Part shown: positions 57,901-60,900 of the stretch, piece after piece
Layout: each line of letters starts with the position of its first letter
Numbering within the stretch: position 1 is the stretch's first letter
NCBI RefSeq assembly: GCF_056712565.1
Contig: NZ_CM160072.1
Strand: one strand, 5' to 3'
DNA length: 64,000 nt
Made by a program: the position numbers

Positions 57901-60900
57901 TCGATGCTTATGCTGCCAGTGATCCTGCTGAATGTTTTGCCGTACTTTCTGAATATTTCTTTAGCGCCCCAGAACTTTTTGCTCCTCGTTTCCCTTCATT
58001 GTGGCAACGTTTCTGCCAATTTTATCAACAAGATCCTTTGCAGAGACTGCATCACGCTAATGATACAGACTCGTTTTCGGCGACGAATGTTCATTAATTA
58101 ACAACTTTGCAGATTAATTAACCAATTGAAATGGCTTATGAAATTTAGTGTTGACAGACAAGGTACCGCTAAGTAATATGCGCCCCGTTCTCACGATTCC
58201 TCTGTAGTTCAGTCGGTAGAACGGCGGACTGTTAATCCGTATGTCACTGGTTCGAGTCCAGTCAGAGGAGCCAATTTTCTGTTTTCTTGCATCCTTGCGA
58301 ATCTTTATCTGATGTTGATTCAACAGGTTAGTGTGAAAACTCTTCTCGGTGCATTTTTATTTTACCCTACGCATCGGGAAAAATTGGTGGTCAAATCTGG
58401 GGTCAGGTTAGTTCGATAATGGAGTGACCCCCATATATCCCTTACCGACGCAAAAATCCGCACCCTCAAGCCTTCTGATAAACCCTTTAAAGTCTTCGAT
58501 TCTCACGGTCTGTATCTGCGGGTCAAGCCGGGTGGCTCCCGCCACTGGTATCTCAAATACCGTATTAGCGGTAAAGAATCCCGCATTGCGCTGGGTGCCT
58601 ATCCAGCCATCTCCCTGTCTGATGCGCGACAGCAACGTGAAGGTATCCGTAAAATGCTGGCGCTGAATATCAACCCGGTACAGCAGCGGGCTGCTGTACG
58701 TGGCTCACGAACACCGGAGAAAGTTTTTAAAAACGTGGCGCTGGCGTGGCATAAAAGTAACAGGAAATGGTCGCAGAACACCGCCGACCGTCTGCTTGCC
58801 AGCCTGAACAATCACATCTTTCCGGTCATCGGGAACCTACCTGTATCAGAACTTAAACCCCGTCATTTCATTGACCTGCAGAAAGGGATCGAGGAAAAAG
58901 GTCTGCTGGAGGTTGCGTCCCGCACACGGCAGCACCTGAGTAACATAATACGCCATGCGGTCCATCAGGAGTTAATCGATACGAACCCTGCAGCAAACCT
59001 TGGCGGCGTGACCACACCTCCTGTCAGACGGCACTATCCTGCCCTGCCGCTGGAGCGGCTGCCTGAACTGCTTGAACGTATTGGGGCATATCATCAGGGC
59101 CGTGAACTGACCCGGCATGCCGTTCTGCTGATGCTGCATGTGTTCATTCGCTCCAGTGAACTGCGTTTCGCCCGCTGGTCAGAGATTGATTTCACAAACC
59201 GAGTCTGGACGATACCCGCGACGCGAGAACCCATTATTGGCGTGCATTATTCCGGCCGCGGGGCAAAAATGCGAATGCCGCATATCGTCCCCCTCTCAGA
59301 ACAGTCCATCGCCATTCTGAAACAGATTAAGGATATCACCGGTAATAATGAACTGATCTTCCCCGGCGACCATAACCCGTATAAGCCAATGTGTGAAAAC
59401 ACGGTCAATAAGGCACTGCGGGTGATGGGTTACGACACGAAAAAGGATATCTGCGGTCACGGCTTCCGGGCAATGGCATGCAGTGCGCTGATGGAATCGG
59501 GTTTATGGGCAAAGGACGCAGTAGAACGCCAGATGAGTCATCAGGAGCGCAATACCGTGCGCATGGCTTATATTCATAAGGCAGAGCACCTGGAAGCCCG
59601 CAAAGCGATGATGTAGTGGTGGTCGGATTATCTGGAAGCATGCCGAGAATCTTATGCACCGCCTTATACAATTGGTAAAAATAAGTTTATCCCATAGTAT
59701 ACTAACGAATCCCACACTCTGGCAAATTACCACCACCTCCACAGGAGGTGGTTCTATATAGACTTTTATCAACTTCATGACGAAAAACACCTATTTTATC
59801 CCAAAAGAAGACAATAGAGTCACAGAGGAATCAAAGAGCGACTCAATTGTCTTTGGACAGTCTGGTTGTGAGGTTAGAAAACAGTTACTCCTACACCATT
59901 AAATAGGGCGCAATGCTCGCTAATTTCTCCCGGGTTTCTGTCAGTTCGCGTTCCGGCGTAGATTGCGCGATGATTCCCGCCCCCGCCTGTATCCAGCAGC
60001 GCTGGCTATCCTGAAATACGGAACGCAGAACTAGCGCCGCATCAAAGCGCGTATCGTCCAGCAGCAGGATTGCGCCGGAATAAAGCTCTCGCGGCGTCTT
60101 CTCAATTTGCATAATCGCGTTCAGAGCAGCATTTTTAGGGATACCTGAGGCAGTAATCGACGGAAACAGCACGGTAAACGCATCCCAGGCATCCTTGTTT
60201 TCCGCAAGCTGACCGCTCACGCCAGACCCCAGATGCTGAACGCTGCCGCGCTGGCGAACCGACATTAAATCTTCAACCACCACGCTGCCCGGCTGGCAAA
60301 CAGCCTCCAGTTCAGCAATAGCTTCTTTGACAGAAAGGATATGCTCAAGCACCTCTTTACTGTCGTGCAGCAGTTCTGCCTCTTTCGCCTTATTATGCTC
60401 CGGGTTTCCCATGCGATCGCGGGTGCCCGCAAGCGGTTCAGTGACCACTTTATTGCCCGTCACTGACATCACCAGTTCCGGGCTAAAGCCCAGCGCTTCG
60501 CGTCCTTCCTGACGGAACATAAACGAGCGCACAGGCGTGTTTGCCTGCCGCCCGTATAACAGCGTGGCGGGCATATCAATCCGCGATGGCAGGGGAATGG
60601 CGCGCGAGACAATCACTTTGACATACTCGCCACGGCGGATCTCCGCAACGGCGCGCGCAACCTGTTGTTTATATGCCTCACCATTGAGGGCGGTATCCAC
60701 CGCCAGTGGTGCGTTCTGCGTCGTTGTACCGGCCTCTTTTACCCACTCGCACAAACGTCGGCACCCGTCGGCGGAGTCCGCATAAACGGTGACATTTCCC
60801 TTTTCAAAAATAAGTTCTTCACGGGGAACGGTTAACGTCAGCAGCGGCCACTCCCCGGCGTTAAAGGCAATCCCCCGCGCATGCGCCGCAAAGTTGAACC

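Follow-up and report, generated by a model that had tools for sequence, protein, structure and literature searches.

The integrase gene of the yersiniabactin island, or high-pathogenicity island (HPI), of Escherichia coli very probably persists in the lineage described here as a relic, decaying neutrally in an island that was already fixed in the chromosome. The gene, int, lies beside the tRNA gene asnT in a 64,000-nt stretch of E. coli chromosome (contig NZ_CM160072.1, RefSeq assembly GCF_056712565.1; hereafter the window), which ends at position 64000, 4.3 kb into the island and before the distal genes. Its start codon has become ATA and a TAG stop interrupts it at codon 394. Polymorphism within the island and the state of the right border in a proxy genome indicate that these lesions followed the immobilisation of the island.

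Two lesions in the HPI integrase gene

The frame at 58435-59697 is the P4-type integrase gene of the HPI at E. coli asnT, as the first-pass annotation had proposed, because its product matches three Pfam domains, all above the gathering score (Arm-DNA-bind_3, PF13356, residues 3-87; the central, SAM-like Phage_int_M, PF22022, residues 98-191; the catalytic Phage_integrase, PF00589, residues 224-384), is 48% identical to phage P4 Int over the whole length, and agrees with the crystallised arm-binding domain of Yersinia HPI Int (PDB 3JTZ/3RMP). The latter differs from window residues 1-81 at three positions only (S21F, L29R and P81L), with P81L sitting near the end of the crystallised construct. 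The phrog_1 and NF007246 profiles also match the product. Further HPI features in the window are the insertion at the 3' end of an asn tRNA gene, the adjoining int and the presence of ybtS. The full yersiniabactin cluster (ybtS-X-Q-P, ybtA, irp2, irp1, ybtU-T-E, fyuA) is found in E. coli HS13-1, which contains a 100% identical stretch to a 1571-nt query (58190-59760) and served as proxy for the right end of the island, located outside the window. The parts of the gene are as follows.

58435..59697 (+): HPI integrase pseudogene, 420 codons plus stop, 1263 nt (Pfam, likeness to P4 Int, RefSeq "internal stop" on the identical allele)
58435..58437 (+): ATA codon 1, from ATG by G-to-A (comparison with relatives)
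58441..58695 (+): coding region of the arm-type DNA-binding domain, residues 3-87 (Pfam; PDB 3JTZ/3RMP span residues 1-81)
58654..58656 (+): Met74, first canonical in-frame start, which would give a 320-aa fragment without the arm-binding domain (list of open reading frames, ORFs)
59569..59571 (+): TAT, putative catalytic Tyr379, 5' of the premature stop (alignments)
59614..59616 (+): TAG nonsense codon 394, CAG (Gln) in relatives (allele alignment)
59617..59697 (+): stranded 26-codon tail and native stop, the first 6-11 codons being a family-conserved block (alignments, profile matches)

The frame is open from 58420, an in-frame TAA at 58417-58419 closing it on the upstream side. At 58435-58437, where Met is expected, stands ATA, followed by TCC CTT ACC GAC (SLTD...); it is at exactly this codon that the Yersinia protein in 3JTZ begins MSLTDAKIRTLKPSDKPFKV. 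In-frame ATG, GTG and TTG are absent before the ATG at 58654. The Raoultella gene starts ATG TCC CTT ACC GAC, from which the window departs only in having A for G at codon 1. ATG is also found there in ACN001, EC958, AST46 and others, and ATA in 042, 536, Nissle, and strains of sequence type (ST) 69 and the ST95 group. The premature TAG is followed by 26 open codons (WWSDYLEACRESYAPPYTIGKNKFIP), base-for-base equal to those of intact alleles, up to the TAG at 59695-59697. Codon 394 is CAG in all twelve other distinct alleles aligned, and Gln is also the residue in P4 Int. The parts (393+1+26) give 420 codons, the length of intact orthologues, namely the 1263-nt coding sequences (CDSs) of other E. 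coli and a 420-aa ORF in Raoultella planticola.

The preserved frame needs no special explanation, because the alleles have diverged by only ~1% and most have not yet been struck by a stop; an open tail of 26 codons, expected by chance at ~(61/64)^26 = 0.29, is not remarkable in itself. Native start and stop are found neither at 58654 nor at the premature TAG, relatives having ATG and CAG, and neither of these ancestral codons reappears in the 59 identical genomes described below. The earlier description of a gene inactivated twice is borne out as regards the ATG-to-ATA and CAG-to-TAG changes, which are real; inactivation itself is plausible, though demonstrated for neither lesion alone. Its ATA first codon and the TAG at position 394 leave the frame interrupted and without the canonical start of an intact gene.

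Fifty-nine independently sequenced complete genomes match a 1234-nt query spanning both lesions at 100% identity; they include UTI89, S88, IHE3034, APEC O1, APEC O18, NU14, UM146, PMV-1, MS7163 and the type strain DSM 30083. Of these, UTI89 serves as the reference strain for ST95 (PMC8209727), and we take the others to be members of the ST95 complex. Because the identical allele recurs in all 59 genomes, it is a clonal marker of the ST95 group and not a sequencing error. It is hardly credible that the lesions are an artefact of sequencing or assembly, a formal possibility against which this recurrence speaks, or that suppression or recoding carries translation past the stop. A suppressor of the supE type would restore the ancestral Gln, but no recoding signal is evident and amber suppressors are not known from natural isolates.

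The identical allele is flagged by RefSeq as a pseudogene with an "internal stop" in HS13-1, DSM 30083 and EC69, while the ATA-start int of 042, 536 and Nissle 1917 is called an intact CDS. One such ATA-start product, WP_024174323.1, goes under two names, "integrase arm-type DNA-binding domain-containing protein" in the 536 record and "tyrosine-type recombinase/integrase" in that of Nissle. At position 58358, upstream of the gene, the window and HS13-1 have T and all 15 other sequences compared, DSM 30083 included, have G; this appears to be a private single nucleotide polymorphism (SNP) within the ST95-group allele.

The right border of the island and selection on its genes

The first-pass annotation had supposed that a crippled integrase would lock the island into asnT, a proposal which the right end does not support. 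In HS13-1, fyuA is followed by ~650 bp of AT-rich DNA and then by a chromosomal inverse-autotransporter (yeeJ-like) gene, with no CDS of any kind annotated between the two genes, and so no gene for an excision factor. A search of HS13-1 for the distant right-end copy of the 17-bp attachment (att) core, CCAGTCAGAGGAGCCAA, allowing up to 3 mismatches within 43.7 kb, returned the core only in asnT, asnW and asnU, and no right-hand repeat. The gene layout of EC958, 536, AST46 and 042 is the same, and loss of the right repeat and of the excision-factor gene in nearly all E. coli HPIs has been published (PMC2606025; PMC8209727). HS13-1 has the asnT site, the deletion of right border and adjoining backbone, and the lack of an excision factor typical of the fixed E. 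coli HPI subtype, and does not have the two flanking 17-bp repeats of the mobile form. Even with an intact int, the island could not excise.

Selection was assessed in six complete islands (HS13-1, EC958, 536, AST46, ACN001 and 042) from nonsynonymous and synonymous segregating sites and the corresponding ratio of polymorphism rates (pN/pS).

int: 18 nonsynonymous to 4 synonymous sites, pN/pS 1.42
each of 11 ybt/irp/fyuA genes: pN/pS 0.09-0.41
the 11 ybt/irp/fyuA genes pooled: 153 to 199, pN/pS 0.25

The int ratio is indistinguishable from neutral (binomial p = 0.63) and differs from that of the pooled cargo genes (Fisher p = 6e-4); the larger set of 17 alleles has 21 nonsynonymous and 5 synonymous sites. 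By these counts, int is the only island gene without purifying selection. The excess of replacements is common to alleles that start with ATG, which indicates that relaxation predates the ATA mutation. Because the right-hand att site (attR) is absent from the proxy and ATG alleles are also neutral, the lesions are best regarded as a consequence of immobilisation and not as its cause.

In the favoured account, the likely order of events begins with integration at asnT and then loss of the right border, comprising attR and the excision-factor gene, a deletion shown in the proxy and in published work. Site-specific excision thereby became impossible and left int without a job, and the allele comparison shows that int gathered mostly amino-acid-changing substitutions. 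The change from ATG to ATA arose once, as its linkage shows, and presumably spread by homologous recombination to more than one third of HPI-positive E. coli. In the ST95 group, an ATA allele of the 042 type gained S21F and Q394*. Transcription may still enter from the asnT promoter, with any product presumably ending at residue 393, short of the MMQWWxDYL C-terminal segment. No active recombinase would be expected, nor any consequence for the island, which would spread only with its chromosomal flanks.

Origin, spread and expected effects of the lesions

Seventeen int alleles were found to differ at 27 variable sites. Changes were polarised with Raoultella and, for residues 1-81, with the Yersinia protein, its state being taken from the PDB entry and that of Klebsiella codon 394 from a phage-labelled record, MK416017.1. 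An outgroup scan with an exact 23-mer, covering one genome per species in GTDB, returned only Raoultella planticola. In the window allele, eight derived changes affect the protein (M1I through ATA, S21F, L29R, E88V, L149Q, M172I, R271H and Q394*) and one is synonymous. The 042/ST69 allele has the same set minus S21F and Q394*, and the ST95-group allele is therefore a 042-type allele to which these two were added. In 536 and Nissle, ATA stands on an otherwise different background.

Recurrent mutation of the start codon was considered and rejected. The four-gamete test fails for site 3 when paired with sites 86 and 263, but a derived upstream SNP, 58287T, is present in 7/7 ATA alleles and 0/9 ATG alleles. 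Because 58287T is linked to every ATA allele, ATA is concluded to have arisen once and to have moved by crossover within the first 86 nt of int (nt 3 to 86). The HPI is reported to spread by homologous recombination of large fragments (PMC2606025), with which a single ATA origin and crossover fits, and ATA itself presumably spread by recombination.

The frequency of each lesion among complete genomes was determined using a 57-nt query centred on the variant, exact matches corresponding to the >=99% identity band. The TAG haplotype is exact in 64 of 2252 int-bearing genomes. The ATA haplotype is exact in 847, at least 36-38% of ~2,250-2,360 carriers; this denominator was used since the 2010 obtained by megablast of the start region is too low, missing AST46-type alleles (three nearby SNPs, no 28-nt seed).

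This prevalence raises the question of adaptive silencing, in which loss of Int would have been selected and not just tolerated, either because a recombinase with one cognate att arm and four nearby asn-tRNA cores is harmful, or because retention of yersiniabactin is thereby secured. Such selection would suit the presence of ATA in at least 36% of HPI-positive genomes, the independent lesions of different lineages (ATA; TAG; a ~350-bp deletion plus frameshift in strain 97-3250), the nominal int pN/pS above 1, and the inverted asnW-asnU-asnV segment of UTI89 (PMC8209727). It is nonetheless unlikely: pN/pS is not statistically separable from neutrality (p = 0.63-0.82), a single origin with hitch-hiking recombination means that the frequency of ATA needs no selection, the frame is still open in most alleles, and the island could not be lost by excision anyway.

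As to the effect of each lesion, initiation at AUA reached 0.02-3% of that at AUG when measured with E. coli reporters (bioRxiv 10.1101/063800). A Shine-Dalgarno (SD)-like GGAG lies 10 nt 5' of the ATA, and initiation there would be expected at ~30- to 5000-fold below AUG. A product initiated at Met74 would lose the arm-binding domain, and lambda Int without its N-terminal domain cannot recombine (PMC9791396). The TAG falls 15 codons past the putative catalytic Tyr379, leaving fourteen residues after it. R239, K278, H342, R345, H369 and Y379, which we take to be catalytic from the general tyrosine recombinase motif, are conserved in a 70%-identical E. coli paralogue, Raoultella and P4, and all precede the TAG. 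What the stop removes is QWWSDYL, within the MMQWWxDYL segment C-terminal to the tyrosine helix. The paralogue shows 100% conservation of residues 381-400, P4 Int reads MMQWWADYL there, and profile matches run to residues 403-411. In 40/40 sampled integrase alignments (Pseudomonas, Vibrio, Rhodobacter, Acinetobacter, Campylobacter and enterobacterial phages), the match reaches residue 400 or beyond. The C-terminal tail of lambda Int contacts the neighbouring monomer (PMC9791396), and Q394* is likely to have abolished recombination.

Retention of low-level function, with AUA as a weak but genuine start and Int(1-393) active enough to work, for example, in trans on other asn-tRNA islands, is very improbable. 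The reporter values for AUA, the SD-like motif, the intact putative catalytic residues and the acceptance of ATA starts by RefSeq are compatible with it. However, the stop removes a block that is invariant between HPI Int, the paralogue and P4 Int and is covered in every phage integrase alignment sampled, int shows no purifying selection, and the window allele carries six further derived amino-acid replacements.

A related history, also very improbable, would have the ATA allele (536, Nissle 1917, 042 and ST69; more than one third of HPI-positive E. coli) still translated from AUA into a trickle of working integrase, with the ST95 group the first to kill int, by Q394*; in a variant, selection would have silenced a recombinase that endangered the asn-tRNA cluster. 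If true, int would be a natural AUA-initiated gene in E. coli, where to our knowledge AUU is the only start of this non-canonical kind to have been confirmed.

Neutral decay in a fixed island remains the preferred reading, and several points weigh against it. Only 22 sites segregate among the six islands (26 among the 17 alleles) to support the pN/pS value, and recombination among alleles blurs the counting of events. HS13-1, in which the right end was read, differs from the window upstream of tRNA-Ser. Loss of function is deduced from sequence; all six putative catalytic residues lie before the stop, making residual cleavage activity conceivable, and low-level AUA initiation can occur, integrases being needed in tiny amounts only.

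Related islands and the surroundings of int

The HPI Int of Yersinia pestis and Y. pseudotuberculosis is an orthologue, with the same asn-tRNA 17-bp core and the same three-domain layout. It starts with Met, and the Raoultella and Klebsiella-record orthologues keep Gln394, whereas the window allele combines ATA and TAG with six other replacements. The HPI of Y. enterocolitica 1B, studied by the Rakin and Carniel groups, is said to have a premature stop in int and to have lost mobility, which would be an independent mutation in another species.

As far as it reaches, the window conforms to the fixed E. coli HPI (Schubert et al. 2009, PMC2606025; Auvray et al. 2021, PMC8209727), a type with the asnT site, a lost right repeat and a chromosomal flank starting in the yeeJ-like gene. 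In their available sections, neither paper takes up the condition of int; the figures given here for the ATA and TAG alleles and for the neutral pN/pS come from the present analysis. A different lineage-specific inactivation of int, by deletion and in other lineages, has been described in the intB alleles of Enterobacter and E. coli that lack bp 124-470 (Paauw et al. 2010, PMC2801613). In E. coli 97-3250 (NZ_CP027599.1, 697-1612), int is cut to 916 nt and flagged as frameshifted, an independent inactivation resembling that deletion allele.

HPIs of the integrative and conjugative element (ICE) type, such as ICEEc1 of ECOR31 and ICEKp1 of Klebsiella, have the same int-ybt module, with int transcribed from the tRNA-Asn promoter when integrated, but unlike the window type keep both repeats, the excision factor and conjugation genes. 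In E. coli ACN001 (NZ_CP007442.1), the HPI occupies the asn tRNA beside nac and not asnT, and fyuA is followed by a hypothetical gene, an AlpA-family regulator, which is likely to be the excision factor, and a DUF2857 gene. The int of this ICE-type island starts with ATG, is near-ancestral and is the allele closest to Raoultella. Phage P4 Int has a MMQWW[A/S]DYL block identical to that of HPI Int, but is a functional phage enzyme with a different target tRNA gene.

Two outgroup records have features of their own. In Raoultella planticola ATCC 33531, the intact HPI int is preceded by a bare 17-bp att core (2958-2974, minus strand), with no tRNA gene in front, which suggests that the island is one of several asn-tRNA islands arranged in tandem, like those described for Enterobacter hormaechei. 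MK416017.1 (Klebsiella phage ST101-KPC2phi6.3) ends inside an HPI-type int at 43700-43939; the encoded part, labelled a hypothetical protein, is 100% identical to the last 80 residues of Int and has Gln394, and the predicted prophage boundary probably runs into an ICEKp element.

Around int, the window holds the following features.

57261-58097: mtfA ORF
58151..58179 (+): putative asnT promoter, sigma-70-like (TTGACA-17-TAATAT; consensus scan, 10/12 matches)
58198..58273 (+): asnT, tRNA-Asn (GTT), the island integration target (ARAGORN; Rfam tRNA, 72.6 bits; mtfA-asnT context in RefSeq genomes)
58258..58274 (+): left 17-bp att core CCAGTCAGAGGAGCCAA (attL), at the asnT 3' end (read from the sequence)
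58275..58434 (+): int leader and island left arm (SNP 58287T, SD-like GGAG at 58421-58424, in-frame TAA at 58417-58419)
59891..61195 (-): ybtS, first yersiniabactin gene, convergent with int and a control for selection (ORF, RefSeq annotation, pN/pS 0.14)

The same 17-mer as the asnT core has been listed as attO (PMC2801613). The spacer between asnT and int is 161 nt; transcription of int in the integrated HPI/ICEKp1 has been reported to start from the tRNA-Asn promoter (PMC13023037), and the asnT promoter probably also drives int by read-through when integrated. An Rfam scan of 56500-61500 found nothing beyond two tRNAs, the predicted fold of the int leader was no better than that of shuffled sequence (z = -0.87), and a terminator scan of the int-ybtS interval gave nothing convincing. 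A perfect 9-bp inverted repeat (ACCACCTCC-ACA-GGAGGTGGT) lies at 59732-59752 in this 193-nt spacer, with no clear T-run, and was not called by the scan.

Further upstream, the window and HS13-1 diverge just past the 3' end of tRNA-Ser (upstream of ~57116), with two SNPs inside tRNA-Ser (57148 and 57159). A zinT-like ORF occupies 55797-56447 of the window; in that place the HS13-1, 042 and EC958 records have a frameshifted integrase, which presumably derives from a serU island. A second decayed integrase beside tRNA-Ser was considered for the window and rejected, since the window diverges from HS13-1 there and has the zinT-like ORF instead. The source strain of the window appears to be without that serU island, or to have another variant of it, despite the shared int allele.

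RefSeq already carries the pseudogene annotation, and that the island is fixed is known from the literature. The present analysis adds how frequent the ATA allele is and that it arose once, that TAG is confined to the ST95 group, and that int alone among the island genes lacks purifying selection. ATA-start int is annotated as intact in hundreds of RefSeq genomes, with inconsistent protein naming, and any scoring of mobility by the presence of an intact integrase will overrate these islands. The int alleles (ATA with 58287T; S21F with Q394*) are also convenient lineage markers and help to locate recombination breakpoints on the left side of the HPI. The biological weight of the finding is small: it conforms to the textbook picture of a pathogenicity island turned permanent chromosomal fixture, its mobility gene decaying.

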